DNA from: Promethearchaeia archaeon
GTDB lineage: Archaea > Asgardarchaeota > Lokiarchaeia > Sigyniarchaeales > SOKP01
Direction of reading: 5' to 3'
NCBI GenBank assembly: GCA_046497275.1
Contig: JAWOFX010000020.1
Span: 1-14,943 of the forward strand
Length of the DNA: 14,943 nt
Shown here: piece after piece, positions 6,019 to 14,943 of the stretch
Layout: every line of letters starts with the position of its first letter
Numbering within the stretch: position 1 is the first letter of the stretch
The notes under the pieces: generated by a model
The model's input: the letters and a program-made list of their open reading frames with translations, nothing else
Databases searched by the model: none
Told to the model about the DNA's origin: nothing
Program-made: the position numbers and the translations under genes

Positions 6019-7365
6019 TTATTCGAAAAACAAATCGATCTTAGGAACTTCATCTTTTAGGTGCCGTTTCGAAGGCTTAGTCTTGAAGAAGCGGCGGGAC
6101 TCGCTATCCTCCAGAACGTAATTGCTACCTCCACCGTGAATCATGCAATATGGGTCCAAAAGCCCGATCTGGTTAGAATATTGCCGAATAAATCCCCTCC
6201 CACCCATAGTTCGAAAACAATGTTCAGAGCTTTCAAACGCTAATTCTGTTGTTTGAATTTTAAGCCCCATTGTATTAGCTGCCATTAATTTAGAACTCAC
6301 TAATTCGGGTTTTCTATCTAAATTGCGAGCATATTGAAAAAGCGCAGAAATTAATAAATTTAATTGTCGTATATTTTCGGAAATTGGAAATCGTAAAACT
6401 TGGTATTGATGTAATCTTCTTCCAAATTGTTCTCTATGAGAAGCCCAAGTATGGGAATATAATATCTTTTTCATAGCGTCTCCTAAGGCTTCCGCACTTA
6501 TTACTAATCTTTCTTCTGTAAGTTGATGGAACATTATATCTATTCCATTCCCTTCTAAAAGATTTTCTATAGGAATTCTTGTCCTATCAAATATCAACCT
6601 ACTTACAAAAGCATCTCTCATTCCATAGGTATAAACTCTTGTTGCTCGAAAATCGTTCAATGAAAGATTCTTAGTTGGCACTACAACAGCCCCTAATTGT
6701 CCATTATTTAAACGACCATAGACAATAATATAATCTGCGATTAATCCGTTAGTAATAAATACCTTCTTACCTTTTATTACCACTGAATCATCTTCTTCCA
6801 TAAGACGAAGTTCCATGTTAAAGATATCACTTCCTGCATTGAATTCCGTCATTGCAGACGCTCCTATAGCTCCATCTCTATTTACAGGATATAAAAAATT
6901 GTCTCTTTGATAATTATTTGCTTTATAATTCACAGGATTACAATATAACGTCCCTCCTGCAAGTCTACCCATTTCTATGCTCCAATTTCCTGCAATATAT
7001 CGCTCAGAATAGTCTGACCATCTTCCCCCACACAATGCATATGCTATAAGACAATTCCTCATAATAGGACCTAGCTCATATTCCGGGTCTTCAGTGCCTA
7101 CAGTGCTGTAATATCCTTTCTTAGAGAGTTTTTTCATTATTCCAACAACGAGTTCTTTCTTTTTTTCTTCGATAGGTTCTTGTATATGATAATTTAATTC
7201 CTCAAGTTTTCTCAATTCCGCATCAAGATCATTTTCCAAAAATTCATAAAAATCTTCTAAAAATCTTTTTTCATTTTCTTCGAGTAAAGGATTATTCAAG
7301 ATATCAAGCTCAGGAACATATTTATTGATCCTTATAGGTTGGAATTCTGCTAATCTAGTATCCAT
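6019..7365 (-). CDS. Acyl-CoA dehydrogenase family protein
   Basis: AMTEFNAGSD, IKGKKVFITNG, LTEERL, REQFGRRLHQYQ, MGGRGF motifs. Confidence 0.88.
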   Translation of the reverse strand: MDTRLAEFQPIRINKYVPELDILNNPLLEENEKRFLEDFYEFLENDLDAELRKLEELNYHIQEPIEEKKKELVVGIMKKLSKKGYYSTVGTEDPEYELGPIMRNCLIAYALCGGRWSDYSERYIAGNWSIEMGRLAGGTLYCNPVNYKANNYQRDNFLYPVNRDGAIGASAMTEFNAGSDIFNMELRLMEEDDSVVIKGKKVFITNGLIADYIIVYGRLNNGQLGAVVVPTKNLSLNDFRATRVYTYGMRDAFVSRLIFDRTRIPIENLLEGNGIDIMFHQLTEERLVISAEALGDAMKKILYSHTWASHREQFGRRLHQYQVLRFPISENIRQLNLLISALFQYARNLDRKPELVSSKLMAANTMGLKIQTTELAFESSEHCFRTMGGRGFIRQYSNQIGLLDPYCMIHGGGSNYVLEDSESRRFFKTKPSKRHLKDEVPKIDLFFE

Positions 7366-7781
7366 TTTTGTTCTCTTAATTTTTTGTTATTATTAAATAA
7401 TTTTAATAAAATTAATATATAATAGATCTAAAAATCTCCAAAATAAAGGTTTTTTGCTCATATCCTAAAATTAATCTTGAAAAATATGAAAGAATAAGTC
7501 CGAAATAAGAAAAAAATAGGGAAAAAGAAAGTTAAGAAATTATTAACTTAGAAAAAATCAACTTTGCAATAGTCAAGAAAGCAATTAATAATACGAATTT
7601 TCAGATCATTACCTTTCAATTTTTTAATAATAACCTAATGGTTGCATTCTTGATAATCTTCATTATTAAATAAAAAAAATAGTCTGTACAAACAGAAAAT
7701 TATTGAGACAATGCAGTGCCATCGGAATCGAGACTCTTCGTGTTTTGTAGTAAATGAGAAAATAAAGAATTCTTAGTATTG

Positions 7782-7788
7782 TTATAAA
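7782..7788 (+). promoter_or_regulatory. Candidate TATA box for the tnpB-like gene
   Basis: TTATAAA ends 36 nt before the ATG at 7825. Weak evidence in an AT-rich context. Confidence 0.25.
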
Positions 7789-7824
7789 CAGAATCGCCCT
7801 CTGATCTGTCTCATAAACTAAATT

Positions 7825-10461
7825 ATGGAGAAGTGCGAAACTAACAGTGATCGCAATGCCCGATCAAACATCTCAAAGCAAGGTGATTTTATTTCTGATG
7901 TGGAATTTTATGTAAATGATCAAGCTTACAAGGACAATTTCTTACTTAAAAACAATATGAAGCAGACTTTTAAAACCGATATTGTGTTAGGGTTGGATGC
8001 GATAAATAAAATCTTGATGAGAAATTATGGGGTCCCTTTTTATCCTTTATTTGAGAAAATTGTACAAGAAAAAATTAATGATTCCCGATTATTATTGCCA
8101 AATTTAAATGAAGAGAAGAAAAAGAATTCATCTGATGATATTTCGAAGAATTCCAATGTAGGAATCCCTAAAGATCATATCAACCCAAATTCTATTGATA
8201 ATAAGCAGCCTACTTCGAGATCTTTTGTAATAAAACAGAAGCGCATTGAGGAAATGGAATCGATGGTAGGAGAAAAGGGTCGTTATTCCACTGAATCGAT
8301 ACGGATTTCTCGGGCTAAATTAGATTTAAAAGAGTTGGATCGTCTTGCCAACCGCTCTCGTGCACTTGCGAATGATACTTTGTATTTATTGCGGCAATAT
8401 TACTTTTATAATAATACGAAAGATCCTGTGAAGAAAAACCTATATCGTAAAATCATCGAGAGCAAATTTTACAAAATCATAAAAGAATCCGAATATCCAA
8501 CTAAGAAAAAAGAGCGAGCGATAGAAATTTTGGATAATTTATTTGTCAAATTAAAGGCTTTAAAGAGTATTGTTCCAACGATAATGAAATTTATGGAATC
8601 TTACAAAGATATTGGATATTCCATATGTGCTCAGCAAATCGTTAAATCAGTCTGTGAGGCATTTATTAGTCATTTAGAATTAATAAGGAAATATTATAAG
8701 GATCTAAAAAAGTGGAATCACACCGCCGAAAATCGACGGAGACAAAAACCATTACGACCTGGTCTACCCCGCTACATCGGCAAAAAAATAAAGGGAGAGC
8801 GAAAAGGGAAATGGAAATTGATCTATACAAGACAAACACTTCAACATAGGAAGAATTTGGAAAGCCTTAAAAACGCCATCGATAACCAGCGATATACGTG
8901 TTATATGTATGTGCCACCCTCACACAATCATTTAATCCCCCCTATACGAATCAGAGCTAATATATTACGACAATTATTTGGTAATGGCGGGTTTGTGGAA
9001 ATCATACCAAAAGGAAGAAATTACTCATTTAACATCCAATATATCAAGACTCAAAGGCAACGAGTCAGAGAATATGGTCTTGATCTCAACAGATACGAGC
9101 AAAACCCTAATAGAGCGATTTCTATCGACTTCGGAGTAAACAATTTTCTCACAGTCTTTAACAACTTTGGTGCGAGATTTCCTATATTTAAAGGTTCAGC
9201 GTTAAAGCGATGGAACTATAAAATAAATCATATAATTCCCAGACTGCAGCGCAGGGTTGATGTGCTTACCGATGTGTTAGAACGATATGAAGAGAAGAAA
9301 AAAACGGGAAGATTACTTTCATTGGAATCAATTATCAATTCTCGAATTCACACCTATCACGACGAATTTGAGATATTGAAACAGATGATTCTTTATATTT
9401 TTAGAAGAATTTTTGAACTTTCCAAAATAGATAAAGCGGAATTAGACGAAAAAGATTTTTTTCTTAAATGTTTTCGTTCCAAATTTTTTTATGGAACGAT
9501 AAAAAAGACGAATTGGAACGACTTCAAAAAAATTGCTGAAAACGATGGTAAAAGAGTCTATAAAGGCATTTTCAATAAGGTCAGAAAGGTTATCTTGATG
9601 GATCTTACGCCACGTGAAAAAAATTCTCTCTTAAATAAGTATTTTCACTATTTACAGAACAAAAGAGATTATAAGGTAAGAATTCTCAGAAAGATTTTTG
9701 GGTATCCAATTCAAGATTTACGAGATTACTTAGAATCACTTGGGTTAAGGATTGATGAGTTATGGGCCAAATATAACCGAGTGAAGAGGGATACCATTAA
9801 CAAGATTGCCAAAAGGTTAATATATTATTGCCTATACTATAAAGTAGCAATGATTACTTTCGGCTATAACAAGGGGTGGCAAAAGCAGCAAAATAATACT
9901 ATTAAACTGAGAAAACTGACCAGAGTTTTATTCGTTTCACTGCCATTTAGCCAGATGTTTGAACGAATTCAACAAGAAGCAGTTTATTTTGGGATAAAAG
10001 TGGATTATATGCCCGAATGGTATACAAGCAAATGTTCATATATCGACGAAGAATCAATTGGGAGGAAAGAAGAAGGGAAATATGCTGGATTACGTAGGTT
10101 TAACAAGAACGGAGTTAAGCATAATGGGTTATTCCGCTCCAAAAACGGATATATCATTCACGGAGATATCAATGGTGCGGCAAATATCGGCAGAAAAAAA
10201 CATCCAAAATTATTTTCATTTCGTGCTATTGCCTACAATTTAGGCTTGATTTCCGATCCTCACCGACCTCTAACCAATCAAATAAAACAAAGAGTCTCTA
10301 AATTTATTACCGCCCCCCCGATCAGTTTTTCCCCCTCAAACGGACTCCCCACCAAAGAATTAAAATTTAACGATAGAGTAGGAATAAGTGAGATTAGAGC
10401 TCAAAGGTATCAAATGGGTCCAAAAGAATTTTTGGCAATGACTCAAACTACTTATGTGTAG
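7825..10461 (+). CDS. tnpB: Oversized TnpB-family RNA-guided endonuclease (IS607-type rearranged RuvC), 878 aa
   Basis: REC/WED motifs ELDRLANRSRALANDTLYLLRQ, AQQIVKSVCEAF, RPGLPRY, VEIIPKGRNY. RuvC-I ISIDFGVNN (D435), ITFGYNKGWQ (G680 at the canonical Glu site), PEWYTSKCS (E731), GLFRSKNGYIIHGDINGAANIGRK (D781). Confidence 0.9.
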   Translation: MEKCETNSDRNARSNISKQGDFISDVEFYVNDQAYKDNFLLKNNMKQTFKTDIVLGLDAINKILMRNYGVPFYPLFEKIVQEKINDSRLLLPNLNEEKKKNSSDDISKNSNVGIPKDHINPNSIDNKQPTSRSFVIKQKRIEEMESMVGEKGRYSTESIRISRAKLDLKELDRLANRSRALANDTLYLLRQYYFYNNTKDPVKKNLYRKIIESKFYKIIKESEYPTKKKERAIEILDNLFVKLKALKSIVPTIMKFMESYKDIGYSICAQQIVKSVCEAFISHLELIRKYYKDLKKWNHTAENRRRQKPLRPGLPRYIGKKIKGERKGKWKLIYTRQTLQHRKNLESLKNAIDNQRYTCYMYVPPSHNHLIPPIRIRANILRQLFGNGGFVEIIPKGRNYSFNIQYIKTQRQRVREYGLDLNRYEQNPNRAISIDFGVNNFLTVFNNFGARFPIFKGSALKRWNYKINHIIPRLQRRVDVLTDVLERYEEKKKTGRLLSLESIINSRIHTYHDEFEILKQMILYIFRRIFELSKIDKAELDEKDFFLKCFRSKFFYGTIKKTNWNDFKKIAENDGKRVYKGIFNKVRKVILMDLTPREKNSLLNKYFHYLQNKRDYKVRILRKIFGYPIQDLRDYLESLGLRIDELWAKYNRVKRDTINKIAKRLIYYCLYYKVAMITFGYNKGWQKQQNNTIKLRKLTRVLFVSLPFSQMFERIQQEAVYFGIKVDYMPEWYTSKCSYIDEESIGRKEEGKYAGLRRFNKNGVKHNGLFRSKNGYIIHGDINGAANIGRKKHPKLFSFRAIAYNLGLISDPHRPLTNQIKQRVSKFITAPPISFSPSNGLPTKELKFNDRVGISEIRAQRYQMGPKEFLAMTQTTYV

Positions 10462-10480
10462 TAGTAATAAATAATACCAA

Positions 10481-10649
10481 TTCACGAAAGTGTTGCGGTC
10501 TACAGAGATGTGCGCTCTTAAAAATGCATGAAATCTCCAAAGTTATTAAGCCTTTCCGTGAAATAAATACAGAAAAAGGAATAAATGTTTGTTATTCTGA
10601 CACGAATGTAAAATAAGTCTGTATACTGGTAAAATTTTAATTTTCAAAC
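10481..10649 (+). ncRNA. Candidate omega/reRNA (scaffold ~10481-10629 plus putative guide ~10630-10649); the 5' end may begin inside the CDS
   Basis: Stems found by eye: 10481-10490/10552-10562 (one bulge), 10505-10514/10525-10537, 10567-10573/10618-10624 (perfect 7 bp) and 10579-10584/10592-10597. Located directly 3' of tnpB, where TnpB guide RNAs are encoded. Confidence 0.55.
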
Positions 10650-10792
10650 AAAAATGAATTTTTGAACTAAATTTCCTTATTGCAAACTTAAACAGAATTT
10701 CATTTAACATTTAGTTTAACCAATTTATTGGATCTTTTTTAGAAAGTGTTATTTTTAATTATTGGATTTAAACAAAAAACTTTATTAAATTC

Positions 10793-10813
10793 TTAAATTA
10801 AAGTTAATTTAAT
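10793..10813. repeat. Inverted repeat TTAAATTAA-aag-TTAATTTAA upstream of the thiolase-like gene (possible operator)
   Basis: Perfect 9-bp arms with a 3-nt spacer, between a TATA-like TTTATTAA (10781-10788) and the ATG at 10837. The arms are AT-only. Confidence 0.3.
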
Positions 10814-10836
10814 GATTAAAAGGTAATTGAAGAAAA

Positions 10837-12258
10837 ATGATAAAATTTAGCGAGAAACAATTAAAAATTCCAAAGTTATTACGACCCGTGTACTTAGTTA
10901 CAGCTGGAATGTCTAAATTTGACAGAGCATTCCCAGAAACACGAACAGAAGAGTTATGTATAGATGCATTAACTGCAGCAGCAGATTTTGTTAATATGAC
11001 ACCAACAGAATTAAAACAATATATTCATACTGCTTACTATGGTCATTTCGCTGACCATTTCGGAGACCAACTTCTTGGAGAGGCAGTAATCCACGACAGA
11101 TTAGGATTAGATCCCTTGGGAACAATTGGTGTCAAAACTGGTGGTGCTACTGGAGGTTCTACAATGTGGGAAGCTATCAAAGCTGTCGCATCAGGGTATA
11201 GCGATTGTGCCTTGGCTTTAGGATGGGAACGTATGGATGAAGTCCCAACAGATGAGGGAAATCATTTAATCGCGTGTGCTGCTGATAAAGATTGGGAAAC
11301 TCCTTTAGGGCATATCTATACTGGCTATTATGCTGTAATGGCCCAAAGGTATTGGAAAATTTTTGGGAAAGAAGAACCATCTTTTCGAGATACTATGGCT
11401 GAGATTGCTGTGAAAAATAGAGGATATGCAAGAATGAATCCTCATGCCCATGGACCAATGGATATTAATATCGAAGATGTTAAAAATTCACCCGTCATCG
11501 CACATCCTTTAAGAGCATTAGATTGCTGCTTAATGAGTGTTGGAGCTGCTTGTGGAATTGTCTGTGATGAAAAAACTGCATATGAAATCACTGATCATCC
11601 CCTTAGAATCTATATTGGAGCTGGAAGTCACACGTTGAGAGTAGGAGATCGAAGGGATATGAAGGTACCGCTATTACCAAATGAAAAACCAGATCAATAT
11701 GATGATTTAGGGAAAGAATTCCCAGGTGGTGATCGTTATCCTGGATTTACAAGCTTCTTAGCTGCTCGAGTGGCAGCTTATTATGCTTATAATATGGCTG
11801 GAATCAATGATCCCCTAGAAGATTTAGATGTAATTGAGACGCATGACGCGTTTACGATCAGTGATATTCAAACATACGAAGATGTCGGGATTAAACCATA
11901 TGGTCATGGTCGAGAATATATCGAATCTGGTGAAGCATATCTTATAAATCCTAAGACTAATAAACCAGGTAAATTACCATCAAACCCCTCTGGAGGATTA
12001 ATTGGGTGCATGCATGCTGTTGGAGCTACGGGTTTAATGCAGATAGCAGAAATAGGCTACCATATTTGGAATAGATGGGATGAGATACACGAACCCCAAG
12101 AAAAATGGGATGCTTTTGGAAGAGAGAAACCAAAAGATTGGAGGAGTTTACAAGTCGAAAGAGCTAAAAGAGGTCTGGCAATAAGTCATGCTGGAGTAGG
12201 ATCCCATGTTACGTGTACCATTTTAATGGATCCAAATAATTTGTTAAAGGAGGATTAA
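10837..12258 (+). CDS. Thiolase-fold protein (SCP2/type-2-like) lacking the canonical nucleophilic Cys
   Basis: VYLVTAGMSKF, IAVKNRGYARMNPHA, PLRALDCCLMSVGAA, ETHDAFT, NPSGGLIGCMHAVGATG. VKTGGATGG occupies the position of the usual VENACASG. Confidence 0.85.
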   Translation: MIKFSEKQLKIPKLLRPVYLVTAGMSKFDRAFPETRTEELCIDALTAAADFVNMTPTELKQYIHTAYYGHFADHFGDQLLGEAVIHDRLGLDPLGTIGVKTGGATGGSTMWEAIKAVASGYSDCALALGWERMDEVPTDEGNHLIACAADKDWETPLGHIYTGYYAVMAQRYWKIFGKEEPSFRDTMAEIAVKNRGYARMNPHAHGPMDINIEDVKNSPVIAHPLRALDCCLMSVGAACGIVCDEKTAYEITDHPLRIYIGAGSHTLRVGDRRDMKVPLLPNEKPDQYDDLGKEFPGGDRYPGFTSFLAARVAAYYAYNMAGINDPLEDLDVIETHDAFTISDIQTYEDVGIKPYGHGREYIESGEAYLINPKTNKPGKLPSNPSGGLIGCMHAVGATGLMQIAEIGYHIWNRWDEIHEPQEKWDAFGREKPKDWRSLQVERAKRGLAISHAGVGSHVTCTILMDPNNLLKED

Positions 12259-12262
12259 AAAA

Positions 12263-12865
12263 ATGCCAAAAACAGAAGAAGAAAAAGGATTTGTTGAGAT
12301 TGTTGACGGAAATTATAAAATTAAAGGAAAATTTCATATAGTCGAAGAAAACCAACCGATTTTTGATAAAGATACTGGGAAATTAGCTGGAGTGACTAAC
12401 CCACGTGATATGACTTATATCCACTCTTATGGGGGTGAAGCACCATTTTTTGAAGGGATAACACAAGGAAAATTGCTTGCTACGAGATGTGACAATGAAA
12501 ACTGCCTTTCAAAAGGGAAAATTTTTGAACCATTTAGAATTCATTGTCCAGATTGTCTTAGAAAAAATACCATCGTAGATATCACCGATAAAGCAAAAAA
12601 TAAAGCAAAAATACATACTTTTATCATCACTCATCGTGCTGGTGCATTTAACACCTTACCAAAACCAATTAAATTCATTAATGTAGAATTTGATGAAGAA
12701 GTCGCTACCATATTAATGAGCATTTTAGCGGTCGGAGAACCAAGTATTGGAAAAAAAGTTGTGCCCATCTTTCAGACCAAAGACCCAACTTATACTATTA
12801 TGGATTTAAGATTTGTTCCTGAAGGAACTCCAGTAACTGAATTACCAGAAGGGTTTACTTTTTAG
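12263..12865 (+). CDS. DUF35-type Zn-ribbon/OB-fold protein (thiolase partner)
   Basis: FFEGITQGKLLATRCDNENC...CPDC zinc ribbon followed by an OB-fold-like segment (IHTFII...FINVEFD). Starts 4 nt after the thiolase stop, with SD AAGGAGG. Confidence 0.85.
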   Translation: MPKTEEEKGFVEIVDGNYKIKGKFHIVEENQPIFDKDTGKLAGVTNPRDMTYIHSYGGEAPFFEGITQGKLLATRCDNENCLSKGKIFEPFRIHCPDCLRKNTIVDITDKAKNKAKIHTFIITHRAGAFNTLPKPIKFINVEFDEEVATILMSILAVGEPSIGKKVVPIFQTKDPTYTIMDLRFVPEGTPVTELPEGFTF

Positions 12866-14242: not shown

Positions 14243-14943
14243 TTATTCTCGCGCTTCTTTTCTAAGGACTTTTTTATCGATTTTACCTACAGCAGTTAAA
14301 GGAATTTCTTTCGTGATCTCAATCAGTTTAGGAACTTCATAAGGAGCACATTTTTCCTTAGCATAGGAGATTATCTCTTCCTTCAATTCCTCTGGATCTT
14401 TATCGATATATTGAGGACTAGGTTGGACATAGGCTTTCACAATTTCAGAACCTGGTCTATCTGGGTTAGGAATACCCACAAGTGCCAACATATCAATTGC
14501 CGGGTGTTTAGAAAGTACGTCTTCAACCTTGCTCGAGAATACTTTATATCCTCCTACAATGATCATATCTTTAGTCCTATCCACAATTTTTATATATCCA
14601 TCTCCGTCCATAATTCCCACATCACCAGTATGCATATATCCATCCTTATCGATTGCTTTTTCTGTTTCTTCTGGTTTATTATAGTAACCTTTCATAACTA
14701 ATGGTCCCTTAATTAATATCTCACCTGGTTCACCAAGCGGAACGGGTTCTGAAGTTTCTGGATCAGCAATTTTACAATCTACATTTAAAAATGGCATACC
14801 AACCGTTCCTAACTTTTTATTACCTAATGATGGATTCATAGTCGATACGGGGGAGGTTTCTGTCATTCCGTATAGTTCCAACAACTTTCCTTTTCCAATA
14901 ATGCTTTCTAATTCCACTTGTGATTCTTTTGGAAAGGGGGACG
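14243..14943 (-). CDS. Long-chain fatty-acid/acyl-CoA ligase (ANL adenylate-forming family), C-terminal part; 5' end beyond the window
   Basis: ELYGMTETSP, GEILIKGPLVMKGYYN, HTGDVG, IVDRTKDMIIVGG, TAVGKIDKK. The frame is open to the window edge, so the GTG at 14917 is not the real start. Confidence 0.9.
   Translation of the reverse strand, partial: SPFPKESQVELESIIGKGKLLELYGMTETSPVSTMNPSLGNKKLGTVGMPFLNVDCKIADPETSEPVPLGEPGEILIKGPLVMKGYYNKPEETEKAIDKDGYMHTGDVGIMDGDGYIKIVDRTKDMIIVGGYKVFSSKVEDVLSKHPAIDMLALVGIPNPDRPGSEIVKAYVQPSPQYIDKDPEELKEEIISYAKEKCAPYEVPKLIEITKEIPLTAVGKIDKKVLRKEARE

Follow-up and report, generated by a model that had tools for sequence, protein, structure and literature searches.

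The omega RNA (also named reRNA) of TnpB from the IS200/IS605-type element ISDra2 was reportedly described by Karvelis 2021 and its structure by Nakagawa 2023. In this system, a sense-strand RNA is found at the 3' end of tnpB (PMC10097598). The right end of the transposon is also the end of the scaffold, the guide is taken from the flank and a pseudoknot is located just before the guide. The bases −5 to −3 before the guide form this pseudoknot, which is conserved in Cas12 guide RNAs (PMC10097598), and also in the other characterized TnpBs the guide follows the scaffold (PMC10097598, PMC10530073).

TnpB proteins referred to as TnpB2 (PMC10530073) or RIIr-5 (PMC10691335) harbor a glycine at the canonical RuvC-II glutamate position and an alternative glutamate in an E-x-Y-T-S-K-C-S motif. 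A member of this group, TvTnpB, is an active nuclease whose cleavage is guided by a noncoding RNA mapping to the right end, and the reassigned glutamate is essential in the Fanzor protein ApmFNuc (PMC10530073). The TnpBs of IS607 elements such as ISFba1, which are also of a RuvC-II-rearranged type, are linked to reRNAs derived from RAGATH-18 that are located wholly downstream of the ORF and composed of stem-loops and pseudoknots (PMC11061315). The 5' handle of Cas12a-type crRNAs is, in addition, a short hairpin with a pseudoknot that directly precedes the guide. The papers searched contain no description of TnpB guide RNAs in Lokiarchaeota, nor of the large TnpB lineage considered here.

We analyzed a window of 14,943 nucleotides (the whole stretch of DNA, on one contig) from an Asgard archaeon of the Lokiarchaeota/Promethearchaeota, in which a gene encoding a large TnpB-family nuclease is followed by a short conserved tail. 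This tail (10462-10529) is probably the right end of a multicopy Asgard TnpB element that encodes a guide-RNA 3' module on the tnpB sense strand. An initial annotation had placed a candidate omega RNA 3' of the nuclease; a structured and conserved sense-strand element with a sharp end is found there, but the end, most of the stems and the guide differ from those that were proposed. The data place the scaffold-guide junction at an exact base, provide a fold, supported by covariation, for the putative guide RNA of an Asgard lineage of unusually large TnpBs, and add a compact variant to the guide-adjacent pseudoknot common to TnpB and Cas12 RNAs. Biologically, such an RNA is expected for an element of a known kind and is no surprise.

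The nuclease gene

7825-10461, plus strand: large TnpB-family nuclease ORF, 878 aa as an open frame (Pfam, NCBIfam, RuvC alignment)

The neighbors of the gene are ordinary metabolic genes. The core that is common to all copies of the gene begins near 8218, i.e., at residue ~132 of the ORF. Pfam identifies an OrfB_IS605 domain (residues 423-497) and a Cas12f1-like TNB domain (residues 708-788), and the NCBIfam model guided_TnpB scores 76 bits, which is under its cut-off of 100. In an alignment with ordinary 400-aa relatives, the RuvC-I and RuvC-III aspartates are found in invariant columns at D435 and D781, respectively. Gly680, in a G-Y-N motif, occupies the canonical RuvC-II glutamate position and the alternative glutamate, Glu731, likewise in an invariant column, resides in an E-x-Y-T-S-K-C-S motif, as in TvTnpB. 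Judged from these residues, the nuclease has a complete, rearranged RuvC triad, D435/E731/D781, for which catalysis is predicted; it is of the RIIr-5/TnpB2 type, a clade placement judged from motifs alone. In contrast to TnpB2/RIIr-5 proteins, members of the window's lineage are composed of 745-880 residues, harbor a helical insertion of ~150-200 residues between RuvC-I and RuvC-II and have no C4 zinc finger.

In an exhaustive protein search, the family was found to form one 50%-identity cluster, around which lie more distant large relatives (670-1800 aa) that share 32-38% identity. Searches of PDB sequences with either the protein or the family profile gave no match to a solved structure, and Pfam gave nothing significant for the N-terminal extension of the nuclease or for a small ORF found upstream of other copies (see below).

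Copies of the element and its right end

10462-10529, plus strand: conserved 68-nt noncoding tail, i.e., the element right end and the 3' module of a candidate omega-RNA scaffold (identity among copies, shared ATGCAT end)
10550-10649, plus strand: unique AT-rich intergenic DNA upstream of a thiolase-like gene, holding the rest of the initially annotated region (the 3' half of its outer stem, its domain 2 and its guide)

The genome to which the window belongs (3.85 Mb, 188 contigs) harbors ~10 paralogous copies of the gene at 66-80% identity. The similarity extends ~68 nt past the stop codon and stops after ATGCAT (window 10529) in every copy. The shared sequence terminates with ATGCAT in ten copies of this genome, 15 copies of two congeneric genomes and four metagenome loci, and from the following base onward their sequences are unrelated, such that about 29 copies (three genomes and metagenomes) carry the 68-nt tail. 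An nhmmer profile of the tail has 11 matches in the window's genome, all of which immediately follow a TnpB ORF or what is left of one. By this comparison of copies, the element ends at 10529. Pairwise identities among the seven intact copies are

tail: 0.84
codon positions 1+2: 0.85
four-fold degenerate sites: 0.70
60 nt after 10529: 0.27

The higher identity of the tail (0.84) than of the four-fold degenerate sites (0.70) and the flank (0.27) indicates that the tail is under purifying selection. Within the last 100 codons the four-fold identity is 0.76-0.77, compared to 0.70 overall, which is too weak a difference to place the 5' end of the scaffold.

A scaffold end at ~10629, with a sharp drop in conservation at that point, had been proposed initially. 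The drop is absent there and is instead found after 10529 in all copies, i.e., the real end is exactly 100 nt earlier. The segment 10550-10649 is common to no paralogue, and similarity to the congeneric genome G006 begins only at window 10782.

In one locus (L151:1880-1942, identical to contig C57 of genome G107), a second, decayed right-end module is located 88 nt downstream of the intact one. The final codons of a dead TnpB ORF lie before this decayed module, i.e., the two modules are tandem ends.

Fold of the tail

10476-10499, plus strand: stem-loop 1, with outer stem ACC/GGU, an internal loop, inner stem CAC/GUG and a GAAA loop
10476-10478 with 10497-10499, plus strand: outer stem ACC/GGU (covariation)
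10483-10485 with 10490-10492, plus strand: inner stem CAC/GUG, with the GAAA loop at 10486-10489
10504-10507 with 10515-10518, plus strand: hairpin 2, AGAG/CUCU, with the 7-nt loop AUGUGCG
10510-10514 with 10525-10529, plus strand: pseudoknot between GUGCG of the hairpin-2 loop and the terminal UGCAU, directly before the boundary
10519-10524, plus strand: A-rich linker of variable length between hairpin 2 and the terminal pentamer
10400-10458, plus strand: possible further scaffold helix in the last ORF codons, including UGGGUC (10415-10420) with GACUCA (10440-10445) (RNAalifold, 25 copies)

The comparison of homologous tails predicts a compact pseudoknotted RNA module at 10476-10529 on the sense strand. 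In the predicted module, a stem-loop comes first and a small H-type pseudoknot second, the 3' strand of the latter being composed of the last five bases (UGCAU, 10525-10529). The tails of relatives are 45-94 nt in length (most 64-70 nt) and display the same architecture with different sequence. The outer stem is found elsewhere as ACCUC/GAGGU, GCUUC/GAAGC, GGCUCU/AGAGUC or UUCCUC/GGGGAA; the inner stem is 2-3 bp long with a GAAA, UUCG, CUAG or GUAA tetraloop. Within the genus, the loop of stem-loop 1 varies freely and the stem is kept. Hairpin 2 is elsewhere AAGG/CCUU, ACGG/CCGU or GAGG/CCUC, with a conserved GUGCR or GUACC in the loop, and the terminal pentamer, elsewhere GGUAU or CGUGU, is complementary to this loop.

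A covariance model, R1, was built from the three nested helices, leaving out the pseudoknot. It scores 80 bits on 10468-10529 and was used to align 27 distinct instances, including relatives at ~34% protein identity; the pseudoknot was then counted as a fourth helix. In this alignment, which is fitted to three of the four helices and holds related sequences with independent compensatory events in ~two to four lineages per pair, 91.4% of the cells are paired compared to 85.1% in shuffles, the number of cells changed on both sides is 29 (8.9 ± 2.2 in shuffles) and the covariation score is 0.245 (0.137 in shuffles; slid controls ≤ 0.11). None of these three values was reached in 500 shuffles, and the outcome was the same with 18 sequences. 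All three pairs of the outer stem have changed on both sides, yet only 75% of its cells pair in the automatic alignment. In hairpin 2, 95% of the cells pair; pair 2 is found as G-C, A-U and C-G, and pair 3 as A-U and G-C (both sides changed in 8-9 sequences). The pseudoknot is 97% paired although it is outside the alignment model. Its position 3 is G-C, A-U or G·U, and its position 5 A-U, G·U, C-G or G-C. The first pair is G·U in 26/27 sequences, which is possible only on the tnpB sense strand and therefore points to a sense-strand fold.

The covariation signal emerged only once the relatives at ~34% protein identity were added. With the 25 copies of the genus, for which RNAalifold proposed several helices, covariation was not above shuffles; the tail is too conserved there to reveal a compensatory signal. 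Folding of the single sequence 10395-10529 gave z = −0.99. For the possible further helix at 10400-10458, covariation was not above that of shuffles, and this stretch is coding.

The structure drawn in the initial annotation was different:

10481-10490 with 10552-10562: TTCACGAAAG with CTTTcCGTGAA, outer stem of domain 1
10505-10509 with 10533-10537: GAGAT with ATCTC, hairpin arm in domain 1
10510-10514 with 10525-10529: GTGCG with TGCAT, second pairing of the domain-1 hairpin
10567-10573 with 10618-10624: ATACAGA with TCTGTAT, outer stem of domain 2
10579-10584 with 10592-10597: GAATAA with TTATTC, inner stem of domain 2

In this model, the scaffold is a two-domain RNA at 10481-10629 and the guide is found at 10630-10649. 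The complementary segments are all present in the sequence as listed, and the minimum-energy fold of 10481-10629 is exactly the two-domain structure. The energy of this fold is, however, no better than that of shuffled sequences: z = −1.06 with 31 of 200 dinucleotide shuffles equally good, and z = −1.01 for 10462-10660. For 10250-10660, the range suggested for a folding comparison, z = +0.26 and 59 of 100 shuffles were as good, i.e., there is no excess stability. Furthermore, all sequence past 10529 is unique to the window copy, and the drawn structure is neither conserved nor covarying among homologues. Two of the three stems of domain 1 have their 3' halves (CTTTcCGTGAA at 10552-10562 and ATCTC) in the nonconserved flank, partly inside the candidate guide, and domain 2 (10567-10624) is located entirely within this copy-specific flank. 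Covariation instead pairs GAGA with CUCU (10515-10518) and CAC with GUG (10490-10492), such that TTCACGAAAG forms a local CAC-GAAA-GUG hairpin. Pairing of the conserved tail with the window's own 100-nt flank (RNAduplex) is at chance level, −17.0 kcal/mol compared to a mean of −19.1 kcal/mol for shuffled flanks, 71% of which pair equally well or better. The sole genuine pairing of the list is GTGCG/TGCAT, which is conserved and covarying and corresponds to the pseudoknot. Because the RNA scaffold ends at 10529, most of the proposed stems, as well as the proposed guide, are chance features. The two-domain model, which thereby fails on shuffles and covariation, i.e., on the grounds chosen for it by its own authors, is hardly credible.

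Another possibility is that the tail functions within the 3' UTR of the tnpB mRNA, in stability, termination or translational control, and has no guide role. A structured tail on the sense strand, directly after the stop codon, is what such an element would look like. However, the tail lacks a T-run terminator, and in every copy the conservation breaks off at the same single base, which is the pattern of an element end. The pseudoknot, at the extreme 3' edge, corresponds to the one next to the guide in TnpB/Cas12 RNAs. In addition, a truncated mini-copy on contig C115 retains the tail and ~190 nt of dead coding sequence but no nuclease gene. We consider a 3' UTR function very improbable. The last ~255 nt of the mini-copy hint at an upper bound for the length of the scaffold, as read from what this copy retains.

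Candidate guide

10530-10549, plus strand: candidate guide, i.e., the first bases of the unique flank (unrelated sequence after ATGCAT in every copy; expected length ~16-21 nt)

The candidate RNA resembles the TnpB-omega RNA systems in the features seen in its sequence, i.e., the protein, a conserved 3' scaffold, a sharp junction and a guide-adjacent pseudoknot. If the RNA guides the nuclease, then by analogy with characterized TnpBs the guide would start at 10530 and not at 10630. The guide previously assigned to 10630-10649 is wrong because the scaffold ends at 10529, and the candidate guide is found instead from 10530 to ~10549. Tests of a guide at 10630-10649, or of an IS607-style junction at ~10629, would have probed ordinary intergenic DNA; a plausible but mislocated annotation is now corrected.

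In the proposed mechanism, the RNA would arise by transcription that includes the 3' end of tnpB or starts inside it, and the transcript would cross the element boundary; by analogy, it should run from upstream of 10476 across 10529. The pseudoknotted scaffold would be held by TnpB and the next ~16-21 nt (from 10530 on) would serve as the guide for cleavage of matching DNA beside a TAM.

Comparison with described guide RNAs

The candidate RNA is like the ISDra2 omega RNA in its sense-strand location at the tnpB 3' end, the scaffold end at the element right end, the guide that would be taken from the flank and the (here candidate) pseudoknot just before the guide. In ISDra2, the partner strand of the pseudoknot is located ~100 nt upstream, whereas here it is a hairpin loop 11-15 nt upstream. 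Furthermore, the ISDra2 scaffold overlaps the ORF, whereas the supported module here is made up of 62 nt of noncoding tail. There is no sequence similarity between the two RNAs, the protein is about twice as large here, and no Y1 TnpA was found in the genome. The RNA thus differs from described omega RNAs in its compact pseudoknot (partner at 11-15 compared to ~100 nt), the large protein and the Asgard host.

The RAGATH-18-derived reRNAs share with the present candidate a TnpB of the RuvC-II-rearranged type, a position wholly downstream of the ORF and a composition of stem-loops and pseudoknots. However, no serine recombinase was found here, and a search of the whole window against Rfam (E up to 1) gave no matching family, RAGATH-18 included; as far as this search goes, the candidate RNA is not a RAGATH-18 member. 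The likeness to the Cas12a-type 5' handle is one of form only, as there is no CRISPR array or repeat unit and one copy of the RNA is found per nuclease gene.

The 62-nt tail could also be the whole scaffold, i.e., a crRNA-like minimal guide RNA for a Cas12-sized, CRISPR-less Asgard TnpB, with the diverged copies being stationary nuclease genes that would persist without any transposase and each have their own guide. This idea is unlikely. If true, a minimal 62-nt scaffold would represent a step from long omega RNAs toward short Cas12a-like guides that was taken independently.

Transposase, left side and mobility

7463-7571, plus strand: remnant of a left-side module, i.e., the sequence before, and the last codons of, a small Cys-rich ORF (72-94% identity to the copies on contigs C133, C18, C116, C71, C134 and C115)

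In IS608-type elements, subterminal hairpins and pairing between an internal guide sequence and the cleavage site act in single-stranded DNA. This precedent suggests an alternative in which the tail is a DNA signal alone, i.e., a transposon right end that folds as single-stranded DNA for an IS200/IS605-like transposase, with the terminal ATGCAT being the cleavage site recognized by pairing with the internal GTGCA and with no guide RNA. The sharp end after the palindromic ATGCAT resembles a recombination site, and G·T wobbles are tolerated in DNA hairpins, such that covariation alone cannot separate RNA from DNA. Yet searches for a Y1 transposase (PF01797), a serine recombinase (PF00239) and Cas1 (PF01867) gave no match in the genome (98.9% complete, 188-contig draft), while control genomes do match. 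A comparison of the left sides of the copies, which differ widely, identified no consistent left end, no TAM and no matching left-end hairpin. In addition, the tail and the ORF stay under selection in copies that have diverged by 20-30%, which fits a part that is used by the nuclease. A tail that is a DNA signal alone appears quite unlikely, and the same bases serve both roles in known TnpB elements, i.e., a DNA role is compatible with a tail that encodes a guide-RNA module. Judged from the gene content of this genome, the element would be nonautonomous or immobile. Most of the ~10 TnpB copies have open frames and are under purifying selection.

On the left side, no fewer than three distinct 5' configurations are seen among the copies. 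In 4-5 copies only, the left-end homology is preceded by an A-rich stretch that closes with ATCT(T), and the boundary there is uncertain. In the first configuration, seven copies in the same genome carry a small, divergent Cys-rich ORF upstream, and metagenome locus L115 shares this module. These small ORFs (contigs C18, C116, C92, C133, C134, C71 and C118 of the window's genome, G000; e.g., L017:1562-1945, minus strand) are composed of ~100-128 codons with a C-x2-C...C-x-C...C motif and are decayed in some copies. The window harbors the remnant at 7463-7571, in which there is no intact small ORF. In the second configuration, the window copy and that on C25 start at the same point (window 7866), within a segment homologous to a retropepsin-like part of a 1758-aa ORF on C111. 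Residues 14-113 of the nuclease ORF (N-terminal extension, window 7825-8217) are homologous to residues ~962-1061 of the C111 ORF, where the segment follows an L-D-S-G-S retropepsin-like motif; the C111 ORF ends in an HNH-like H-H...N...H motif. In the third configuration, at metagenome locus L117, a long upstream ORF of the same kind as the 1758-aa C111 ORF leads into the TnpB frame via a frameshift located in an A-run.

Other short repeats were observed near these left sides. Directly left of the remnant, the 44 nt at 7419-7462 are 100% identical to C169:21928-21971, while the loci differ on both sides; on the minus strand, each of the two starts a short open frame, M-S-K-K-P-L-F-W.... A repeat of ~190-230 nt ending in GGGACAAAGAAAC adjoins several TnpB copies on their left and also occurs once by itself (C71:41084-41274, C134:1-191, C133:1-191 and C168:~14575-14792 in G000) and may be a MITE-like element. 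The C115 mini-copy (C115:3680-4010, minus strand) is a ~310-nt mini-element in which a piece of the left module is joined to the last ~255 nt at an AAAGGTT microhomology, followed by a near-perfect (22/23) tandem duplication of 23 nt of right-end flank.

The flank at 10530-10545 matches 7431-7446, ~30 nt left of the left-end remnant, at 13 of 16 bases with the shared 11-mer AAATCTCCAAA. A target-site duplication or a guide self-match was considered and rejected, as 140 sites of the genome match the 10530-10545 sequence with ≤ 3 mismatches and other copies have no flanking repeat; the likeness could be an old flanking direct repeat or chance.

Searches with both window flanks and with the left flank of the C25 copy revealed no empty site; even within genes, identity to the congeneric genomes is no more than 65-79%. 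In G006 (C3:108976-111884, compared to window 6019-12865), a pair of thiolase-like and DUF35 genes is inverted relative to the acyl-CoA-dehydrogenase-like gene, without a TnpB in between. Because of this inversion there is no clean empty site in G006. In the window's genome, the TnpB element is located at the rearrangement junction of the thiolase-like/DUF35 pair.

Distribution and transcripts

Matches to R1 are found only directly after large TnpB genes or their remains, in 9 of 121 genomes of the order and 3 of 23 genera. There was no match at the loci of ordinary 400-aa archaeal relatives or at the fetched loci of bacterial RIIr-5 relatives, and a tRNA/tmRNA search of the window found none.

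In metatranscriptomes from four salt-lake runs (two studies), there are contigs that match, at full identity, parts of the window ORF (no further than 10398) and the thiolase-like gene (from ~10829 on). No assembled metatranscriptome contig identical to the window spans 10399-10828, in a data set that is blind to strand, ends and level. For the C71 copy, contigs, which are assembled and blind to strand and ends, begin ~12 nt before AAUACC and run 104-255 nt into the flank. At the thiolase-like gene, contigs of four runs begin at 10815-10832, some with adapter, i.e., 5-22 nt before the ATG (10837), which hints at a very short 5' leader of this gene.
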